Shown piece by piece: positions 1,761 to 11,688 of a stretch of DNA of 11,688 nucleotides; the stretch's first letter is position 1, and every line of letters starts with the position of its first letter. The notes beneath the pieces are model-generated. The model searched no databases. It was not told where the DNA came from and saw only the letters and a program-made list of their open reading frames with translations. The position numbers and the translations under genes were made by a program. Origin of the DNA: a virus (taxonomy: Duplodnaviria; Heunggongvirae; Uroviricota; Caudoviricetes); the IMG/VR virus record IMGVR_UViG_2571042053_000015. One strand, 5' to 3'.

Positions 1761-2312
1761 ATGAAAGATATTACAAACATCGCAGTGACTGGCGAAGATG
1801 GCGTGGTGACGTATGCCGACGGCAGTAAAGAGGAGTTCCAGTGCAGCGGAACCGTTGCGACCATCATTGCAAGTCTTGCAACGACACTCGAGAAAGAACG
1901 CAAAATGCGCATCGCCACCGGCGACCGCCTGCGCCGCATGTACACCCGCGACAGTGATATGATTTCCCGCGGTTTGAATGGCACGTCTGCTACTTCCACG
2001 GCACCGACAGCAATGAATGCTGAGTTCATGCGTCTGGTACGTGCCGTAGCGCCGAAATACGATTCAGCACTGCCCGACGCCGACCCGCGCATCGTTGCGC
2101 TCGATGTGCTGCGCTACGCCCCTGCTGAGGCGTTCAGCGCCGTACACCCTACCCCAATGTCAGAAATCCAGCTGGATCAGGCTATCGATATACTCGAGCA
2201 GGTTGGCGACTACATGAAAGCAAACAATATCGCTCCGAAAATAATTTCTACAGGAGACGCAATCCGCAGCATCAATGCTGACAACGCCACCTTCTGGGGC
2301 AAAAAACACTAA
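1761..2312 (+). CDS. Hypothetical protein (183 aa), first gene of cargo operon 1
   Basis: ORF with a GAGG Shine-Dalgarno 8 nt upstream of the ATG. No motif recognised from sequence. Co-directional and tightly spaced with three downstream genes. Confidence 0.7.
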   Translation: MKDITNIAVTGEDGVVTYADGSKEEFQCSGTVATIIASLATTLEKERKMRIATGDRLRRMYTRDSDMISRGLNGTSATSTAPTAMNAEFMRLVRAVAPKYDSALPDADPRIVALDVLRYAPAEAFSAVHPTPMSEIQLDQAIDILEQVGDYMKANNIAPKIISTGDAIRSINADNATFWGKKH

Positions 2313-2318
2313 AGAGAT

Positions 2319-2513
2319 ATGAGCATGCCTATCTATGACCCGAAATTAGCCGCAGGCAACCCACAGCGCGCCCACCGCCCGATGCTGACCCGTCAGGATC
2401 TTGAAGCGGCAAAGGCACGCAATAACTTCGATCGCCAGAGTCGCAACCTGCAGCAACTCAACGAATCAAATGCACGGTTCTGGAGTGAACAGAATGAGAA
2501 AGCCAAACGTTAA
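2319..2513 (+). CDS. Small hypothetical protein (64 aa)
   Basis: ATG at 2319, 7 nt after the upstream stop, preceded by AAAGAG. Hydrophilic, Q/R/N-rich. Overlaps the next ORF by 20 nt in a different frame. No recognisable domain. Confidence 0.45.
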   Translation: MSMPIYDPKLAAGNPQRAHRPMLTRQDLEAAKARNNFDRQSRNLQQLNESNARFWSEQNEKAKR

Positions 2514-2670
2514 GCCGGTCCTGCTGTCCGCCGAGCAGATGCAGGCCATACGCAACATTCAGGAACGTGAACGCCAGCGCTCCAATCTCGGCGTCGCTCC
2601 CACCGTTCACCAGATTGCCCGCGGCCTCATGGCTAAGGCTCTGGCCTCACTGGCAAGCGAGGGCGTGTAA
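2494..2670 (+). CDS. Small hypothetical protein (58 aa), internal start of the 2401-2670 ORF
   Basis: ATG at 2494 preceded by GGAG (2482-2485) at 8-nt spacing. Its TAA stop (2668-2670) overlaps the ATG of the next gene (TAATG), indicating translational coupling. The longer 2401 start lacks a Shine-Dalgarno. Confidence 0.5.
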   Translation: MRKPNVKPVLLSAEQMQAIRNIQERERQRSNLGVAPTVHQIARGLMAKALASLASEGV

Positions 2671-3341
2671 TGGGCGCCATTCACCAGATATATGAGCAGG
2701 AAATGTTCTATAACTGGATAGGCGATGGTAAACGATGTGTAGCATTCCACGAAGCGGGCCATGCAGTAGCCGCATGGCTTATTCGCTTAGATATGCAGGT
2801 TATCGCCATTATGGATGAATCCGGCTACGTTGCTGGCGAACATGTACATGAAGCCCAGTGTTTGGGCGTTGTTAAACACGGCATAATCCACAACCACGAT
2901 CTCAGGCGTTTGCGGGAGAGTAAATCTGGTGTAGTTGGGCACGATGGCAAAGTTATCCCTTTCATACGCTACTACGCGGAAGGTATAAAACGCGATGCAA
3001 CAAAGGCCGCTTTTGTAGCCCTCGCTGGACCAGTAAGCGAAGCCCTTTACGAAAATAACGAAATTTTCAATAAAAAGTATTCACTCCCTCACCGCTATGA
3101 CATGGCTAACGTAAATGACATGCTCGATTTAATATGTGCCACGGATAAGCAAATTAACAGGAAGTTAATGCTTTCTAAACTTGTTGAAAAGACCAAATTC
3201 CTCATGACTCAATACTGGCCGGAAGTAGGAAAAATAGCGCATTTGCTTGAGCGGGATAACATTGTTAATGGGCGCGATGTTAGCTCGCTAATCGGCCTCA
3301 ACGTCATTGACCGGGCAACGCCATTTTTGCTGGCGGAATAA
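2670..3341 (+). CDS. Stand-alone zinc-metallopeptidase-domain protein, FtsH-like (peptidase M41-type HEAGH motif)
   Basis: 223-aa ORF. Residues 24-36 VAFHEAGHAVAAW carry an HExxH zinc-binding motif in the FtsH-like context (FtsH has AYHEAGHAI). No AAA+ ATPase or transmembrane region precedes it. Start codon overlaps the upstream stop. Confidence 0.75.
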   Translation: MGAIHQIYEQEMFYNWIGDGKRCVAFHEAGHAVAAWLIRLDMQVIAIMDESGYVAGEHVHEAQCLGVVKHGIIHNHDLRRLRESKSGVVGHDGKVIPFIRYYAEGIKRDATKAAFVALAGPVSEALYENNEIFNKKYSLPHRYDMANVNDMLDLICATDKQINRKLMLSKLVEKTKFLMTQYWPEVGKIAHLLERDNIVNGRDVSSLIGLNVIDRATPFLLAE

Positions 3342-3417: not shown

Positions 3418-4476
3418 ATGATGAATAATTTAATCAATCGCATTGCTTTAACCTTTCTAGCGTTAGTACTCACAGGCTGCACTGCGGGGAAAATCGATCC
3501 CGCAAAAGCGTTAACACAAATGCATATCGTCAAAAGTGATGACTATAAGAAGCGCCCCGGCTGGCCTGCGTTGGTTCGTCTGGGTACTGACGATTGTGAG
3601 ACATACAAAAGTGGCGGCGGTAGCCTCTTTAAGTGGGACGGGCTGACGTGCAACGACAAAAGCATTATCCTGGCGGTTAATAGCAAACCACAGACCATTC
3701 CAGTGTTCTACGCTGCTTACCATGAATACGGGAGCTATGGGGTCGGGGAACTATCCAATTTTGACAATAGCACCCGAACAGGTGAGGAAGCCTCGAAGAT
3801 TCTGGTTAACCTGACCACAGTATTGAACAATCCGGCAAAAGTTGACGCTATCTATGCTGACTATGAAAAGGATCGTTGGAGCATGGGACTTGGTACAGTC
3901 AACGAAAGCGATTTTAAAAAGAGCCTGGCTACTTTTGCTCAGGAACGGGATAAGCTTGCCTCTGAATACCATAAATTACGTGACGCAAACCAAAAGAGAT
4001 ACCTAGCTGAACGGGACGAACGAATCAAACGTGAGAAAGAAGAGGCCATGGCCTCTGAAAAAACGATTGATCTCGTGTTATGGCAGAATCCAACAGTTGA
4101 GCAACAGATGGTTGTTGACGCTCTGCACACTATTAAATTCACAATAAGAAACGATGGCGTGGCATACGCTAACGGTCGCCGATTTATGTCAATTGCCGGG
4201 ATGGAATATCTCAGGAATAGCCTAGCTCTGAGTATGGAGTCATGTTCAGACGCTGGGGCATATGTTGGTGATACGGCATTAAATCGCGCATGTATTCAGG
4301 GCTTGGCGAGGAACATTGTTGAGTGGGGGAAAACCGCCAACGACCGTTCTATTTCAGACAGAGCATGGAACGCAGCCGCAATGGATGGCAGCATTAACTA
4401 CAACCCAATCAAGTATGAAATCCTGTTTTCACATTGGGCAGGAATGGCCCGTGTCTACTCTGCTCGTAGATATTAA
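3418..4476 (+). CDS. Predicted lipoprotein (352 aa) with a central coiled-coil / charged segment; function unknown
   Basis: N-terminus MMNNLINRIALTFLALVLTGC has a hydrophobic signal peptide and lipobox L-T-G-C (Cys21). Charged, helix-prone segment ERDKLASEYHKLRDANQKRYLAERDERIKREKEEA. Gene is visibly AT-rich compared with int and primase. Followed by a terminator. Confidence 0.75.
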   Translation: MMNNLINRIALTFLALVLTGCTAGKIDPAKALTQMHIVKSDDYKKRPGWPALVRLGTDDCETYKSGGGSLFKWDGLTCNDKSIILAVNSKPQTIPVFYAAYHEYGSYGVGELSNFDNSTRTGEEASKILVNLTTVLNNPAKVDAIYADYEKDRWSMGLGTVNESDFKKSLATFAQERDKLASEYHKLRDANQKRYLAERDERIKREKEEAMASEKTIDLVLWQNPTVEQQMVVDALHTIKFTIRNDGVAYANGRRFMSIAGMEYLRNSLALSMESCSDAGAYVGDTALNRACIQGLARNIVEWGKTANDRSISDRAWNAAAMDGSINYNPIKYEILFSHWAGMARVYSARRY

Positions 4477-4526: not shown

Positions 4527-4552
4527 AGCCCGCATTTTAGCGGGCTTTCTTT
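4527..4552 (+). terminator. Rho-independent terminator after the lipoprotein gene
   Basis: AGCCCGC-ATTTTA-GCGGGCT stem-loop (7-bp GC-rich stem, 6-nt loop) followed by TTCTTT, 50 nt after the stop at 4476. Confidence 0.6.
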
Positions 4553-4618: not shown

Positions 4619-5731
4619 CTATTTAACTAAACGTAAATGTGACGGGCGTATCCCCGATTCCTGGGTACTCGATTTTCCACCATTGATAGCTTCCATAAAG
4701 AAGCTGTTACTGAAAGTAAGTGCACTCGCTTCGTCCGCTGGTAACCTCAACTGCTCGAGAATATCTCCCCTTTTAACGCCTTTGCTGCGTAGGGCTGAAA
4801 ACACTTTATCCAGCACTAATGACTTTTCACGTTCAGCAATCCCTTGAGGCTCACTCGTACGATATCCACGGCGAGCAAGTTCTATCGATAGCTGTCGATA
4901 ATGCCATTCGGTAGATAAACCGACATCAAACGTACGGCGCACCAAAGCCGCCAATGATACCCGCCAGTTCTTTTTTAACGAGATGAGTAGATCAAGCGAT
5001 GGCATTCTTGGCACTAAAGCTAAAATACTACGCTCAGGCATCAAAAAGGCCGATGCGAATCGATCTGCATCCTGCTCAGCTTGGCGGCCGTTGTTAGTTG
5101 AATGTTTATGGAGAACCAAGTGCCCCAGTTCATGAGCTGCATCGAATCGACTACGCTCCGGCGTTTTCATTGTATTCAAAAGCACAAAAGGTTTTTCATC
5201 CATCCAGAACGAAAAGGCGTCTACTTCAATACAATTTTCCGCGAGAGAGAACACACGGACCCCATTAGCTTCAAGAAGATGGACCATGTTAGAGATGGAT
5301 AATTCACCTATCCCCCAACTTTCTCTAACCACGCGAGCAGCTCGCTCAGGCTCAGAATAACCATCGAAACTACAATCAGGTACATTAGGTTTAGGAAGCT
5401 TAAACTGCCCGTCAATCCAAGCTGATAGCTCTTGCGCGAGCTTTCCGGCTCCGAGTGCTGAGTCCCTTTTCTGTGCCGTCAACTTTGTCATTGCACGGAA
5501 ACTAACGGCTTCTGGCGACAGAGTAGGTACATCCCTGTCGAGGAAGAACTCAATCGGATAGCCCAGAACAGCAGAAATCCGTTCCATGGTATCGCTGGCT
5601 ATGGCATCAAAAATCCCTGCTTTCTCGTAATTCGAAATCGTCTTACTAGTCAATTCTGTAGCTTCAGCTAAAGCTCTTTGTGTCAGGCCTCTCCGTTCTC
5701 TGGCTATACGTAAACGCTCTGAATTAAACAT
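4619..5731 (-). CDS. Fused XRE-family HTH / ImmA-IrrE (M78-like) zinc-metallopeptidase protein
   Basis: 370-aa ORF. N-terminal HTH (RLRIARERRGLTQRALAEATELTSKTISNYEKA, typical XRE / Cro-C1 helix-turn-helix). Central HExxH in the ImmA/IrrE context (RFDAAHELGHLVLHKH). Second gene of a two-gene - strand operon, 9 nt after the upstream stop. Confidence 0.85.
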   Translation of the reverse strand: MFNSERLRIARERRGLTQRALAEATELTSKTISNYEKAGIFDAIASDTMERISAVLGYPIEFFLDRDVPTLSPEAVSFRAMTKLTAQKRDSALGAGKLAQELSAWIDGQFKLPKPNVPDCSFDGYSEPERAARVVRESWGIGELSISNMVHLLEANGVRVFSLAENCIEVDAFSFWMDEKPFVLLNTMKTPERSRFDAAHELGHLVLHKHSTNNGRQAEQDADRFASAFLMPERSILALVPRMPSLDLLISLKKNWRVSLAALVRRTFDVGLSTEWHYRQLSIELARRGYRTSEPQGIAEREKSLVLDKVFSALRSKGVKRGDILEQLRLPADEASALTFSNSFFMEAINGGKSSTQESGIRPSHLRLVK

Positions 5732-5740
5732 GGTGCATAT

Positions 5741-6460
5741 TTAGCCTGTTTTTAAAATGTCGAGATCGATATCCGGTGTAAACTGCGGTACATCACCGTT
5801 CTGAACAATAGGGTCAGGTTGATGAGGAGCAATAATTAAACGTGTGGAGAAGGCATTAACTACATTCTTGTTATTGTATGAAATCGGGCGTGAAAGCTCA
5901 GCTCGGATCCCCACGCGCTCATCCCCGTCAATTTCATAAAAATCGTAAAGTAAAAACCATAAGTCCAGTCCGATTTTATTCGGTAGCAGTGGTATAACAT
6001 CACCTTCCGGCATGTCTAAATCCAGCTTAAGCTGGCTATCATCCAGGATAAGCTCACCCTGACCCGGGGTGTTATTATGGATTAACCCCATCAGCTCACA
6101 AGTAAAATCACCTTTCTTCATGCGAGACTCAGGAAATCCATGAACCAAACCTGTCTGATCACACCCCCGGCAGAGGTAAAGGGCAACTTTATCACTTACA
6201 GTCAGTTCAACATTTCGCAGGGACAGACGTTTGTAGCCTTTCGGAGCCAGAATGTCGCGGGCTGCACTCACCCCCTCACCATAGAAATATTGCCCACGTG
6301 AGGTCTTGGGGTGATTCTGAGTCGTCGAATAACGACCAGACAAGCCACGCTCAAGAATACGCCTGAGATCACTTTGGCTCAGATTCAGGGACTGCAGGTA
6401 GGATTCAACATCGTCAGGATCTGCCAAAACAATGGTTTTTGCGAGATTATGAGAGTACAT
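5741..6460 (-). CDS. Hypothetical protein (239 aa), first gene of the - strand two-gene operon; candidate effector / toxin partner
   Basis: ORF with a good Shine-Dalgarno (AAGAGG about 9 nt upstream of the ATG on the - strand). No motif recognised by eye. Immediately upstream of the HTH-peptidase gene. Confidence 0.7.
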   Translation of the reverse strand: MYSHNLAKTIVLADPDDVESYLQSLNLSQSDLRRILERGLSGRYSTTQNHPKTSRGQYFYGEGVSAARDILAPKGYKRLSLRNVELTVSDKVALYLCRGCDQTGLVHGFPESRMKKGDFTCELMGLIHNNTPGQGELILDDSQLKLDLDMPEGDVIPLLPNKIGLDLWFLLYDFYEIDGDERVGIRAELSRPISYNNKNVVNAFSTRLIIAPHQPDPIVQNGDVPQFTPDIDLDILKTG

Positions 6461-6666: not shown

Positions 6667-7494
6667 ATGAGTGGTTTTGTTTTTCCTTTCGAGTTTCAAC
6701 CAGTGCCAGAGGCATTGGCAATCCTGAACGACATGGATATTGCTCCCTTTGAAATAACCGAAAAACACCTAGAAAGCTGGTGGGCGGAGGGGAAAATTCA
6801 ACTGTGCTTTAACTGGGGTAGATTCTGGAAAGCTGGCTTAGCCGACGAACTGGCAAAAACAGAAGGCTACGCAGAATTAGGGGCGAAAGAAAAGATCACT
6901 GCGCTCAATGCTGTATCCGCTTCCCCCGAGGCTAACATCAGTCTTGTCGTGCCATCTTACAGCGATTTAAGTTTTATCTGGCGCGGGCATAGCGACGATC
7001 CACTCCCCTGTATCGAGGCCAAACCCTACGGGCTTGATCAACCTTTTGTTATCAAACGCGTTCCTCACACCTGCGAGGACTATTGCGATTACGGTACGCA
7101 GCATTGGGAAAAACTTTACCATTCGCTGCACATTTCGAGTATGGTGCTGCCGCGTGCTGAAGCTGAAAAAATTTATTATCTCTGCAACCCTACAGCTATT
7201 CCAGGCATGGACGAAAAGACGGCATCTGCAGTATCTGCAGTATCTGCGAAAACGGTTAACTATCTGGCCACTGCTTTAAAAGCTTTTATTCACATCCATT
7301 ACGGGGCTGATGTGGCGGACAACCTGCGCAAACATCTTGAGGATCCCACCAGTGATATACGGAAAGACTTTGCGAATAAAGGGATCAAAGCGCCAGGTGG
7401 AAAAGCGCTGGCCAGCCATCTGAAAAATATTCTGATTGAAGTTTTACCCGCGCTCGACAACGTCGATGTGGAGAGTGACGCTGGTAATACATAA
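6667..7494 (+). CDS. Hypothetical protein (275 aa), orphan cargo gene immediately upstream of alpA
   Basis: ORF with AAGG 9 nt upstream of the ATG. No recognisable catalytic motif. Cys/His-rich patch (PHTCEDYCDYGTQHWEKLYHSLH). Contains an in-frame 9-bp tandem repeat. Confidence 0.7.
   Translation: MSGFVFPFEFQPVPEALAILNDMDIAPFEITEKHLESWWAEGKIQLCFNWGRFWKAGLADELAKTEGYAELGAKEKITALNAVSASPEANISLVVPSYSDLSFIWRGHSDDPLPCIEAKPYGLDQPFVIKRVPHTCEDYCDYGTQHWEKLYHSLHISSMVLPRAEAEKIYYLCNPTAIPGMDEKTASAVSAVSAKTVNYLATALKAFIHIHYGADVADNLRKHLEDPTSDIRKDFANKGIKAPGGKALASHLKNILIEVLPALDNVDVESDAGNT
7222..7248 (+). repeat. In-frame 9-bp tandem repeat, three imperfect copies (GCATCTGCA GTATCTGCA GTATCTGCG), encoding ASAVSAVSA
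   Basis: Direct inspection of the sequence inside the 6667-7494 ORF. Confidence 0.7.
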
Positions 7495-7590
7495 CCCCGG
7501 AACATTCCATATATTCCGACGCATTAGAATATTCCAGAGCCCATCACCATAACCTTGCGATTACCTTCTCACTCAATAGCAGGTAATCGC

Positions 7591-7803
7591 ATGAAATCGC
7601 AAACTTTCACCTTTCCCACCAATGGCAACGCACGAGCCAAACAAGTGGCGCACTATCTTGGAGTGCATATCAGCACCGTATGGCGCTATGCAAAACGTCC
7701 TGATTTTCCAAAACCCCACCAGTTAACCGACGGCGTGACCGTCTTTGACGCCGCAGCTATTCGCCAATGGAACAAGCAAAAAACCGGGGGTGAGAATGCT
7801 TAA
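7591..7803 (+). CDS. alpA: AlpA-family (P4 Vis-like) transcriptional regulator / excisionase-like protein
   Basis: 70-aa protein from the internal ATG at 7591 (AGGTAA Shine-Dalgarno just upstream). Sequence QVAHYLGVHISTVWRYAKRPDFPKPHQLTDGVTVFDAAAIRQW matches the AlpA / Vis winged-HTH pattern. Position between int and primase matches P4-like elements. Confidence 0.8.
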   Translation: MKSQTFTFPTNGNARAKQVAHYLGVHISTVWRYAKRPDFPKPHQLTDGVTVFDAAAIRQWNKQKTGGENA

Positions 7804-9056: not shown

Positions 9057-9277
9057 TGCCACGCAAACATCGCTCATCAAGCAACCTGATCAAATTAATG
9101 GAACGCCAGAAAGGTATAGGGCGCGACGATATCCAGATCGCAGATAATCGCCCTACATTCATGCCGTACGAGCCGAACGGAACCTACGCCACAAACCGCC
9201 ATACCCGCCGTATGCTACGCAAGCTCCACGGCATCCAGGCAAAAAGAATGTGTGATCTGAAAGGAGGTCAGAAATGA
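9056..9277 (+). CDS. Small basic hypothetical protein (73 aa)
   Basis: GAGGGAGG Shine-Dalgarno upstream. Start overlaps the upstream stop (TAATG) and its stop overlaps the primase start (ATGA). Arg/Lys-rich. Confidence 0.55.
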   Translation: MPRKHRSSSNLIKLMERQKGIGRDDIQIADNRPTFMPYEPNGTYATNRHTRRMLRKLHGIQAKRMCDLKGGQK

Positions 9278-11688
9278 TTGGATTCGATCACCTGATGGAG
9301 CAGGGGCAGAAACGCACCCCTGCTCGTTTTACTGCAAATAGCTTTTCTGACCTGTGCAACGCTATTCTATCGCATCGTGTGCAAATTTCCATCACCCCAG
9401 AAATGACAGATGAAGAGCGACGTAAGGAAAAGCAGAAACTGTACTGGTTCTCGGCAACTACCCAGCAGGACGGGCAGCGACGTAAACCCGAAAACATGGC
9501 ACCGTGTGCTTTCGGTATGCTGGACATTGACGGCAGCACTCCCGGTGCAATCACAGCACTTGTACAGGTGTTCCGGCGATACTCAATGCTGGTGTACCAG
9601 ACGGCCAGCTATACGGCGGATGAACCTCGTCTGCGTATTGTGTGCGAGCTTTCCCGAGCGGTTGAATCTGACTACCGCCGAGCGACAGGCGAATCCATAG
9701 AAACTTTGTTGATGCAGGAGGCTGGATTCTCATTCGCCAGCCTGGCGGATAAGAAAGCACGCTGGGAGAACGGCAGCGATTATGTTGTCTTTGACCGCAA
9801 TGTATACGGCGCTCAAAGCTATTGCTACTGTCCACACTCTGGAGCGAAAGCCCAGAATTACGCGGGCGCGGTAATCGACGTAGGGGCGTTACCGGAACCC
9901 GCCCAGCTACCAGCGAAGGCGGCCAAAAGCAAGGCAAAGAAACAGCGCCAGCGTGACGCCGCGGCGGTAATAGATGCTGATTTTGACGATCTGAGCGCCG
10001 GACCGGATAACTTCCTTATCGCCGACCTGCGCAGCGCACTCTGGTTTCCCTCCATGCTGCAAAAGGCATGGGACAATGGGGCGTGGATTGAGCAGGGCTA
10101 CCGCCTTGCATCTCTCAAAGGCACCGATTTTGAGGACGACGCGCGGCAGCTGTGGGTCGAGTGGTCATTGACCGCGGCGGATGGCTGGCCTGATGAAGAA
10201 CTTGATGAAGTCGCAGCACAACGCTGGGATGGTCTCGCCCCTGACAAAACCAGCTATAAAGCTATTTTTACTGATGCTCAGGCGCAGGGGTGGAATAATC
10301 CGAGCACATGGCGAGCAAAGGCCGCGTACATTGAGAAAATGGCCCCCAGCACACGCGGTGAACTGCTAGCGCAATATTACGGCAACGTATGCCTGAAAGC
10401 TGATGGTAACATGGTTTATCACTATACCGGGCAGGGGTGGGAGCACATCGCCGATGCCGAGTTGCGCCGCCAGCTTTCGCATATTTTCAAAGATAACGGG
10501 GTCCCCTTTACACCGTACGAGGTTAAAAGCGCGATTGAGGCTATGGGAATGCTTCTGCCTTTAATGGGAGAAACTCCTCGTAACCTGATTGGCTTTGCCA
10601 ACGGCGTTTATGATCTCGAGGCGCAGCGATTCCGCCCCCACTGCCCAGACGATTGGCTGACCAGCCATAACGGCGTTGAATACACGCAACCGGTTAAAGG
10701 CGAAACCCTGAAAAACAATGCCCCAAACTTCTGGCGCTGGCTGCATCATTCCGCAGGGGGCGACTTCGACAAAATGGAGAGAATCAAAGCCGCTCTGTAT
10801 ATGGTGCTGGCAAACCGCTACGACTGGCAACTGTTCATCGAGGTTACCGGTGCTGGTGGCAGTGGTAAAAGCGTGTTCACGGGTATTGCACGTATGCTGA
10901 CGGGCGAACTACACGCCACCAGCGGCACAATGGAGGACATGGACACCGCGCGCGAACGCGCATCTTTTGTCGGCAAAAGCCTGATCACCCTACCCGACCA
11001 AGCAACATATACGGGTTCCGGGCCGGGTATCAAGGCTATAACGGGCGGCGACGTGGTAAGGATCGACCCAAAGCACGAAAAGCCATTCCATACGGTTATT
11101 CGCGCCGTTGTCATCGCAACAAACAACGAACCTATGCGTTTCACCGAACGACAAGGCGGGATATCGCGGCGCCGGGTTATTTTCCCGTTTAACCATGAAG
11201 TGCCGGAGGCGGAACGTGATCCCCATCTGCTCGATAAAATTAAAGCCGAACTGCCGGTAATCGTCCGTGGTCTGCTGATTGACTTCGAACAGCCAGGCAA
11301 AGCCAAATCGCTACTTATCGCGCAGCGTGATTCAGCGGAAGCGCTGCAGGTGAAGAACGATAACGACCCGATGTATGGCTTTTGCTCTTACCTGCTAGGT
11401 TTGCCGAATCCCGAGGGCATGTACATGGGCGATGGGCGCATGGCGCGAGAGCCACGCATCTACCTCTATCATGCTTATCTGGCCTATCTGGAAGCCTACG
11501 GTTATCAGAGAACCCCCACCCTGCCAAAGTTCAGCGGAGATTTACGGGACACGCTCAAAGCCTTTGGTATTACTCTGGACAGTAAAAAGAGTAAAAAGGG
11601 CAAAAGATATAACGTCAATTTGTCTGACAGGGCACAAGAATGGCTGGGAGAAGACGAACTCTCAGCTGTGCCCGACACATTGCAGTAA
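9274..11688 (+). CDS. P4-alpha-like DNA primase / helicase (phage-plasmid primase, P4 family, P-loop NTPase C-terminal region)
   Basis: 804-aa ORF with a strong Shine-Dalgarno (AGGAGG) and TAA at 11686-11688. Walker A P-loop VTGAGGSGKSVF (about nt 10846-10880). Size and position after alpA and the small genes fit the primase-helicase of P4-like satellites / PICIs. Recalled from family knowledge, not searched. Confidence 0.85.
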   Translation: MIGFDHLMEQGQKRTPARFTANSFSDLCNAILSHRVQISITPEMTDEERRKEKQKLYWFSATTQQDGQRRKPENMAPCAFGMLDIDGSTPGAITALVQVFRRYSMLVYQTASYTADEPRLRIVCELSRAVESDYRRATGESIETLLMQEAGFSFASLADKKARWENGSDYVVFDRNVYGAQSYCYCPHSGAKAQNYAGAVIDVGALPEPAQLPAKAAKSKAKKQRQRDAAAVIDADFDDLSAGPDNFLIADLRSALWFPSMLQKAWDNGAWIEQGYRLASLKGTDFEDDARQLWVEWSLTAADGWPDEELDEVAAQRWDGLAPDKTSYKAIFTDAQAQGWNNPSTWRAKAAYIEKMAPSTRGELLAQYYGNVCLKADGNMVYHYTGQGWEHIADAELRRQLSHIFKDNGVPFTPYEVKSAIEAMGMLLPLMGETPRNLIGFANGVYDLEAQRFRPHCPDDWLTSHNGVEYTQPVKGETLKNNAPNFWRWLHHSAGGDFDKMERIKAALYMVLANRYDWQLFIEVTGAGGSGKSVFTGIARMLTGELHATSGTMEDMDTARERASFVGKSLITLPDQATYTGSGPGIKAITGGDVVRIDPKHEKPFHTVIRAVVIATNNEPMRFTERQGGISRRRVIFPFNHEVPEAERDPHLLDKIKAELPVIVRGLLIDFEQPGKAKSLLIAQRDSAEALQVKNDNDPMYGFCSYLLGLPNPEGMYMGDGRMAREPRIYLYHAYLAYLEAYGYQRTPTLPKFSGDLRDTLKAFGITLDSKKSKKGKRYNVNLSDRAQEWLGEDELSAVPDTLQ

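Follow-up and report, generated by a model that had tools for sequence, protein, structure and literature searches.

A stand-alone M41-type protease domain in a cassette slot of enterobacterial phage satellites: a candidate accessory effector

An 11,688-nucleotide (nt) stretch of viral DNA (IMG/VR record IMGVR_UViG_2571042053_000015), referred to here as the window, carries a unit of five co-directional open reading frames (ORFs), the fourth of which encodes a short protein with the zinc-binding motif of FtsH-type (M41) metallopeptidases. By its gene content, the window is a Gram-negative phage satellite of the phage-inducible chromosomal island (PICI) type. The unit lies on the plus strand and begins with ORF183 (183 amino acids, aa; 1761-2312), which is followed by ORF64 (64 aa; 2319-2513; given in RefSeq as a 62-aa protein, ORF62, with an ATG at 2325), ORF58 (58 aa; 2494-2670), ORF223 (223 aa, M41-type; 2670-3341), and ORF352 (352 aa, a predicted lipoprotein; 3418-4476). 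ORF58 overlaps ORF64 by 20 nt, the ORF58 stop codon overlaps the ORF223 start codon in a TAATG at 2668-2672, and a gap of 76 nt separates ORF223 from ORF352. A preliminary description of this DNA, made from the sequence alone, had reported the first four genes as co-directional, coupled ORFs, and both their coordinates and the TAATG overlap were borne out. It had also placed the end of the operon after the 223-aa gene, at 3341, and here it has to be amended, as ORF352 follows and a terminator scan found no terminator-like site between ORF223 and ORF352. The first such site on the plus strand is a hairpin at 4527-4546 (7-base-pair stem with 6 G-C pairs, T-rich tail), which lies between ORF352 and the convergent gene rmrA. 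As predicted from these sites, the transcription unit is self-contained and comprises five genes including ORF352, with its own terminator and with a promoter region and a palindrome upstream.

Upstream of ORF183, a G+C-rich hairpin between runs of A and T (1573-1603; inverted repeat I1, with 12-nt arms that are 92% complementary) is terminator-like in both directions. Two overlapping matches to the sigma-70 promoter consensus follow on the plus strand (1661-1707), and a perfect palindrome, TTGCAAT-a-ATTGCAA (TTGCAATAATTGCAA; 1680-1694), lies inside this promoter-like region as a candidate operator. Seven other satellites also have this hairpin, palindrome, and -10 region in front of their ORF183 homologues; the promoter/palindrome region is kept in Escherichia coli, Salmonella, and Citrobacter, and partly in satellites embedded in helper prophages. 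A 93%-identical match to satellites of another type (L002, discussed below) begins at position 1572, exactly at the hairpin, which is the 5' edge of a block common to other satellites. All five ORFs are conserved across E. coli, Salmonella, Citrobacter, Klebsiella, and Dickeya, and codon alignments against Salmonella, Citrobacter, other E. coli satellites, and the Dickeya loci gave ratios of non-synonymous to synonymous substitution (dN/dS) of 0.09-0.31 for every one of them, with 0.1-0.26 for the first four; therefore, they are real genes under purifying selection and not chance ORFs.

ORF223 contains the segment VAFHEAGHAVAAW (residues 24-36), in which HEAGH occupies residues 27-31, preceded by 26 residues; the motif does not vary among 18 close relatives or among 37 distant ones. 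H27, H31, and D144 are the predicted zinc ligands and E28 is the predicted catalytic residue, and these four positions, together with G120, are invariant across the 37 diverse stand-alone relatives. Taken by itself, ORF223 stays below the Pfam cut-off for Peptidase_M41 (PF01434; 21.1 bits against 29.9, with 24 residues matched around HEAGH), yet 36 of the 37 stand-alone relatives match this model at E < 0.01 (best 4e-16), and a joint profile of these relatives matches FtsH crystal and cryo-electron microscopy chains at E-values of 1e-19 to 1e-12. ORF223 is therefore placed as a divergent member of M41. In a phmmer search, residues 20-210 of ORF223 pair with the human AFG3L2 protease domain (E 0.0017). 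The alignment of the profile with FtsH spans HEAGH, the LAGxxAE helix, the aspartate of GAENDF, and the C-terminal helices. The third zinc ligand of M41 peptidases is an aspartate about 16-20 residues beyond a conserved (L/G)xxAE helix; in the superfamily profile alignment the invariant D144, which pairs with the aspartate of GAENDF in FtsH structures, stands at this place. ORF223 has an insertion of about 35 residues that lies after the active-site (HEAGH) helix and before the LAGP helix.

No AAA model of Pfam matched ORF223, and no membrane helix was found in it, the highest 19-residue Kyte-Doolittle mean (1.29) falling at the active-site helix. With the AAA+ module and the anchors both tested and both absent, ORF223 is not FtsH proper. 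The M78 peptidase model (PF06114) did not match ORF223 at E ≤ 0.1; the neighbouring RmrA matches it at 9e-21. These results agree with the preliminary description, which had seen an FtsH/M41-type zinc motif without an ATPase or membrane anchor (the profile reaches FtsH at an E-value of about 1e-19), and they settle the choice between M41 and M78 that it had proposed to check in favour of M41. ORF223 evolves under purifying selection (dN/dS 0.21-0.25) and is predicted to be a soluble protein, a divergent M41 protease domain whose active site is intact.

Close homologues of ORF223 (73-99% identity), which NCBI names "peptidase M41 family protein", are confined to Enterobacterales. An exhaustive profile search at E ≤ 0.001 retrieved at least 472 clusters (at the 50% identity level). 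The best 150 of the 472 clusters are all short, about 140-290 aa bar a few fragments and one 381-aa protein, and none is of full FtsH length; HEAGH is present in 135 of the 149 representatives inspected from these 150. By these profile matches, ORF223 belongs to a large uncharacterised superfamily of putative stand-alone M41 domains. No conserved partner gene was found beside the distant stand-alone relatives, whose neighbours differ at every locus examined. A search of genome contigs with the M41 alignment was swamped by genuine FtsH genes: three loci considered as stand-alone relatives (L007, L009, and L013) were rejected as full-length FtsH, and only L006 and L008 were informative. A separate observation concerns P0024, a 226-aa M41 homologue present on 66 contigs (e.g., in E. 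coli EC2641), in which unrelated sequence stands in place of the N-terminal ~45 residues and of the HEAGH among them; this M41 copy is apparently inactivated, yet widespread.

Among 5,426 complete E. coli genomes, the M41 gene (ORF223 and its homologues, detected by blastn) is present in 58 (about 1%), ORF183/ORF64 in 26, and ORF352 in 16, each as a single chromosomal copy. No homologue of ORF183, M41, or ORF352 was found in 50,697 phage records. In the family of satellites at yicC, to which the window belongs (E. coli, E2348/69, and Salmonella), the series ORF183-ORF62-ORF58-M41 is constant at 85-100% identity; after M41, ORF352 is present or absent, and the variants of the RosmerTA system differ. 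Because the four genes are constant while the content downstream varies, the four-gene block is backbone within the yicC family, and RosmerTA is cargo. The preliminary description had taken the block itself for cargo in a variable region; the block is the conserved part of these satellites and RosmerTA the variable insert. One relative, integrated at another site, is reduced to a minimal set: int, the five genes, a 239-aa gene, alpA, small genes, and the primase.

Elsewhere, the four genes separate. L002, a tRNA-Gly satellite, has the same five genes after primase-ProQ-PerC, and on the excised circle the unit of the window has the same position, apart from int and the attachment site (att) between the primase and ORF183. 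In nucleotide identity between L002 and the window, ORF183, ORF64, and ORF58 reach 99.6-100%, M41 92%, and ORF352 90%; the drop at M41 therefore marks a recombination breakpoint at the ORF58/M41 junction. A second breakpoint at the same junction is found in satellites of the L004 type (~28 E. coli genomes), where only a 70%-identical variant of ORF58 and M41 (89% aa and 92% nt identity) follow a P4-family primase. Intact M41 genes without ORF183, ORF64, and ORF58 stand after a single-stranded DNA-binding protein (SSB) gene in L027 and after SSB and a 327-aa gene in Dickeya L016, and a 28%-identical M41 without these three genes follows SSB in L006. The leader genes also occur with other followers. 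In Klebsiella PICIs, ORF183 and ORF64 (46 and about 33% identity; ORF64 unannotated) lie directly after the primase, and the slot behind them holds a 45%-identical M41 in L019 and Dit-like, Apex, or other tail-type genes in L018, L020, and L021. In helper-embedded E. coli PICIs, ORF183, ORF64, and ORF58 lie directly after the primase, and the slot is filled by M41 (ET791, ABWA45), by a 197-aa copy of a helper gene and then a frameshifted M41 (ECONIH5), or by baseplate, plug, and spike genes (G5, EC2001); E. coli L037 and L038 have tail genes instead of M41 after the same three genes. In L026, ORF58 and a frameshifted M41 are separated by the 197-aa gene (9177-9770), which shares 75% identity with a late gene (14904-15443) of the surrounding helper prophage; the satellite therefore carries a copy of a helper virion gene (a neck gene).

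M41-like genes of 28-100% identity are found in the post-primase region of satellites with three primase types; their distribution is patchy, some copies are decayed (the frameshift in L026 and P0024, which is without HEAGH), and mosaic breakpoints flank the gene. Because the leader occurs without M41, M41 occurs without the leader, and breakpoints fall at their junction, these sequence comparisons characterise the unit as a mosaic, in which a conserved leader module (ORF183 and ORF64, usually with ORF58) stands before a slot for cassettes, M41 being one filler among several. Since intact M41 genes exist without ORF183, ORF64, and ORF58, the genes are not a fixed system of four, nor are they an obligate toxin-antitoxin (TA) pair. 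The preliminary view of the four genes as one cargo system is accordingly not sustained, either by the loci in which ORF183 and ORF64 are present with or without M41 (Klebsiella L018-L021, E. coli L037/L038) or by those with M41 and no leader (L027, L016, L006). The co-occurrence that it had proposed to check holds for the yicC satellites and L002 (85-100% identity) and fails elsewhere, with breakpoints at ORF58/M41.

Some of these loci have peculiarities of their own. In Dickeya L016 (10001-10070), the annotated 238-aa M41 protein has an N-terminal extension (..KVKPVFLGS..) resembling the start of ORF58 (..NVKPVLLSA..), and this likeness suggests that M41 became joined to the 5' end of ORF58 through a deletion. 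L006 is contig CACSKA010000004.1, labelled Chryseobacterium sp. 18061, on which an enterobacterial-type satellite is found, with an integrase 79% identical to that of the window, alpA, AntA, a DUF927 primase, SSB, and the 28%-identical M41-like gene; this content suggests that the contig, in a Bacteroidota assembly, is mislabelled or a contaminant. A DUF2280 gene closes the helper-embedded satellites L037-L039 and L026 after the variable slot and has no counterpart in the window. In some phages, DUF2280 proteins are annotated as resembling the terminase small subunit, so that the gene may serve these satellites for packaging.

Homologues of ORF183, at identities as low as 42%, occur in Klebsiella, Serratia, Rahnella, and Enterobacter, and the C-terminal half of the protein is helical and conserved. 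NCBI names the family an XRE family transcriptional regulator, a name that gained no support from Pfam, NCBIfam, or PDB sequence and profile searches. No Cro/C1-type helix-turn-helix (HTH) was found by HTH models, and the structure and fold search suggested in the preliminary description gave a model of moderate confidence and no fold match. The "XRE" name looks like a propagated annotation. ORF183 was also considered as a packaging protein of the Rpp (redirecting phage packaging) or TerS-like kind and rejected, with no PDB sequence match, by single sequence or family profile, and no fold match. ORF183 is a conserved satellite protein that is not specific to M41.

The two small genes that follow encode basic proteins. 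ORF64 (isoelectric point, pI, 10.5; dN/dS 0.22-0.26) has homologues, some of them unannotated, after every ORF183 homologue examined, including those of Klebsiella L018-L021. ORF58 is very basic (pI 11.4; dN/dS 0.11-0.22) and precedes M41 in about 49 of the 58 M41-positive E. coli genomes, if the 70%-identical variant is included. It also stands upstream of other cargo, namely the 197-aa protein in L026 and tail genes in L037/L038, and the intact M41 genes of L027, L016, L019, and L006 lack it upstream; ORF58 is the boundary between backbone and cassette. Neither ORF64 nor ORF58 has a family match in Pfam, PADLOC, PHROG, NCBIfam, or PDB profile searches. A strand-helix-helix-like pattern in ORF58 recalls ribbon-helix-helix proteins, and as there was no Pfam match at E ≤ 10 and no PDB profile match, this assignment is not claimed. 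ORF62 and ORF58 are probably DNA-binding regulators of the unit rather than antitoxins, with the conserved palindrome as a candidate site.

ORF352 has a signal peptide ending in a lipobox (LTGC) and a coiled-coil middle, and searches of Pfam, PADLOC, PHROG, NCBIfam, PDB, and the phage records found no match to it. In all 16 complete E. coli genomes that have ORF352, an M41-like gene is present in the same satellite; in three of the 16, the two genes are ~7 kb apart, in different slots. ORF352 is next to M41 in Dickeya and unlinked to it, in the same satellite, in Klebsiella L019. About 42 of the 58 M41-positive E. coli genomes are without ORF352. This co-occurrence is a lead, and since only two or three lineages are involved, shared ancestry may explain the pattern.

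The window opens with the start codon of the integrase gene (int, P4-type tyrosine integrase; 1-1260), closes with the stop codon of the primase gene (D5/Pox_D5-type; 9274-11688), and is 100% identical to the chromosomes of E. coli O45:H2 and related strains, in which the island has a size of 12 kb and lies between yicC and dinD. Its assignment to the PICI-type satellites draws on int, AlpA, the primase, the ~10-15 kb size class, the site-specific insertion, and the absence of structural and lysis genes, none of which was found in the island. The gene order is int, the five-gene unit, RosmerTA on the opposite strand, a 275-aa gene, alpA (7555-7803), an Icd-like gene and several small genes, and the primase. 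RosmerTA (4619-6460, minus strand; found by PADLOC) is a complete system, with RmrA (370 aa, HTH and M78 peptidase; 1e-149) and RmrT (239 aa; 1e-52). It is convergent with the five-gene unit, and the M41 gene is two genes upstream of it with ORF352 in between. Because sister satellites hold other RosmerTA variants or none at this position, RosmerTA is the true variable cargo of the island. The int-alpA RNA motif (Rfam RF02996; 6575-6642, plus strand) scores 46.5 bits (gathering score 35.8) over the whole length of the model and lies just upstream of the 275-aa gene (6667-7494, plus strand), which is between RosmerTA and alpA and has no family match; in sister satellites, genes of about 226-239 aa that are unrelated to it, or only distantly related, hold this position. 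AntA, an antirepressor found in many sister satellites, is absent from the satellite of the window. A search of the window for cos sites of the lambda type or the P2/P4 type found nothing above chance.

At a probability of roughly 0.45, we propose that M41 is an accessory protease of the satellite, an effector for phage interference or immunity that would cut a phage or host protein. The M41 domain would be active as an ATP-independent endopeptidase. Because ORF223 has no unfoldase, it would have to cut an exposed or disordered site, either in a specific phage protein, of the helper or of a competitor, or in a host protein, and this cleavage would serve the satellite as an accessory effector, which makes the gene a candidate for phage interference or immunity. 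The position of the gene among the published PICI immunity hotspots (the 5' end and downstream of pri) is counted for this proposal, as are the alternative slot fillers that are homologues of helper virion genes, the nearby RosmerTA, the purifying selection on the five genes, the patchy occurrence with decayed copies, the flanking breakpoints, and the lack of homologues in the phage records. Several points weigh against it. No PADLOC, PHROG, or NCBIfam model that would support a defence role matched; as the preliminary description had supposed, no described defence or TA model covers the unit, and none of ORF183, ORF64, ORF58, ORF223, and ORF352 was detected in PADLOC-DB 2.0 at E ≤ 0.1, with the nearby RosmerTA as a strong positive control. 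The conservation of the block in the yicC family while RosmerTA varies would fit a life-cycle function equally well, and the block is present in the minimal satellites L033-L036. Taken alone, the promoter matches do not exceed the number expected by chance (4, compared with 5.2). It is doubtful that an isolated FtsH-type domain would act on folded proteins, since it has no unfoldase. Furthermore, the AlphaFold2 model of ORF223, made from 18 mostly close homologues, has a predicted local distance difference test (pLDDT) score of 42.6; a Foldseek ranking with this low-scoring model, which put FtsH/AFG3L2 at the top but at E > 0.2, carries no information, and because of the low pLDDT the fold is deduced from sequence profiles only. 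A wider form of the proposal is more tentative: M41, alone or with ORF352, might be a new satellite effector that acts in phage defence or in helper manipulation through ATP-independent, site-specific proteolysis, and it would then be the first characterised member of a stand-alone superfamily scattered over mobile elements and defence-island-like neighbourhoods.

The main rival, a role in the propagation of the satellite itself, is possible, though on balance improbable. By analogy with the FtsH substrates lambda CII, CIII, and Xis, M41 could degrade a helper repressor or a regulator of the lysis-lysogeny decision; it could also process a helper capsid or scaffold protein, or co-assemble with the host FtsH and so change how active FtsH is. 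Such a life-cycle factor would be in keeping with the retention of the block across yicC satellites, including minimal elements that have no defence system, with the recurrence of M41-like genes at 28-87% identity after the primase or SSB in satellites with different primases, with the lack of the AntA antirepressor in the satellite of the window, and with neighbouring slot cargo that consists of helper-virion homologues. On the other hand, the closely related satellites L018, L020, L021, L037, and L038 do without M41, the gene is frameshifted in L026, and P0024 is without the N-terminal catalytic part. No satellite hijacking protein is known to be a metalloprotease, and literature searches found none. 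The co-occurrence with ORF352 raises the question of a functional pair, for instance an envelope-level exclusion protein governed by the cytoplasmic protease. ORF352 is restricted to M41-bearing satellites (16 of 16 in E. coli, and those of Dickeya and Klebsiella L019), even where the two genes are ~6-7 kb apart in different slots; however, most M41-positive E. coli genomes (about 42 of 58) are without ORF352, the co-occurrences come from the few lineages in which shared ancestry could account for them, and a cytoplasmic protease and an exported lipoprotein would be in different compartments, all of which makes such a pair rather doubtful.

The remaining explanations treat the coupled genes as partners. 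ORF58 could be an antitoxin or repressor of a toxic M41, in which case infection would free the protease and lead to abortive infection, as with Lit or other peptidase-based TA systems. This arrangement would suit the TAATG overlap, the very basic nature of ORF58, and the finding that it, or its 70%-identical variant, stands before M41 in most M41-positive E. coli genomes (about 49 of 58), among them those of the L004 type with only this pair after the primase. It is nevertheless unlikely: intact, HEAGH-bearing M41 occurs without ORF58 in L027, L016/L017, L019, and L006, ORF58 also precedes unrelated cargo, the two genes differ in their recombination histories, and no TA or defence model matches either protein. 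In a type II TA system the intact toxin is always beside its antitoxin, and M41 and ORF58 depart from this rule. A single defence, TA, or anti-defence system of four components (183, 64, 58, and 223 aa), suggested by the tight coupling and the joint travel at 85-100% identity in yicC satellites and L002, is very improbable, given ORF183/ORF64 without M41, M41 without ORF183/ORF64, the breakpoints between ORF58 and M41, and the fifth gene in the unit.

If the proposed accessory effector does act on phages, an unfoldase-free FtsH-type protease would be a new enzymatic class in the anti-phage or helper-hijacking repertoire of satellites, and it would open hundreds of uncharacterised stand-alone M41 proteins to functional study for the first time. 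In enterobacterial PICIs, a post-primase cassette slot is marked by the conserved ORF183/ORF64(/ORF58) leader and its palindromic promoter; this slot could be mined for accessory genes in a systematic way, and the comparison illustrates that satellite genes can be tightly coupled by their stop and start codons without forming one functional system. As for novelty, no PADLOC, PHROG, or NCBIfam model covers the M41 gene, and neither a phage record (among the 50,697) nor a paper on it was found; searches of the literature for M41/FtsH-like proteins in satellites, defence systems, or genomic islands, or for the RefSeq protein accessions, returned nothing relevant. The combination of a putative stand-alone M41 superfamily with the post-primase slot of enterobacterial satellites is a clean, testable lead.

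Among known systems, FtsH/M41 itself (Thermus thermophilus, 2DHR; Thermotoga maritima, 2CE7; human AFG3L2, 6NYY) has HEAGH, the LAGxxAE helix, the aspartate ligand, and the C-terminal helical region in common with ORF223. FtsH also has an AAA+ ATPase, transmembrane anchors, and a periplasmic domain, whereas ORF223 has none of them, is 223 aa long, and contains the ~35-residue insertion; FtsH is an essential housekeeping gene, whereas ORF223 is satellite-encoded and, alone, below the Pfam threshold. The ImmA/IrrE peptidases of M78 (RmrA of RosmerTA, in the same window, and CapP of cyclic-oligonucleotide-based anti-phage signalling systems, CBASS) and Lit are, like ORF223, zinc peptidases with a HEXXH motif that occur in the setting of mobile elements or defence. 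However, the M78 and Lit models do not match ORF223, which has no fused HTH and whose small upstream partner is not obligatory. Rpp proteins, whose structures are deposited in the PDB, are the helper-hijacking packaging proteins of E. coli PICIs and were included in the comparison since ORF183 heads the post-primase block; even with a family profile, ORF183 has no similarity to any PDB chain.

The closest likeness in genomic context is to the immunity cassettes of PICIs, which occupy hotspots at the 5' end, at the 3' end, and downstream of pri, the Tai systems being an example (He et al., 2024; PMC11364771). The M41 gene shares with these cassettes the positions, the type of element, the interchangeability, and the patchiness, and it has RosmerTA two genes away. 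The Tai systems belong to a protein family unrelated to ORF223, and M41 is likened to them by genomic context alone. As a protein, the M41 gene product is a divergent member of the M41 domain family; as a genetic object, the gene behaves like a PICI accessory cassette.

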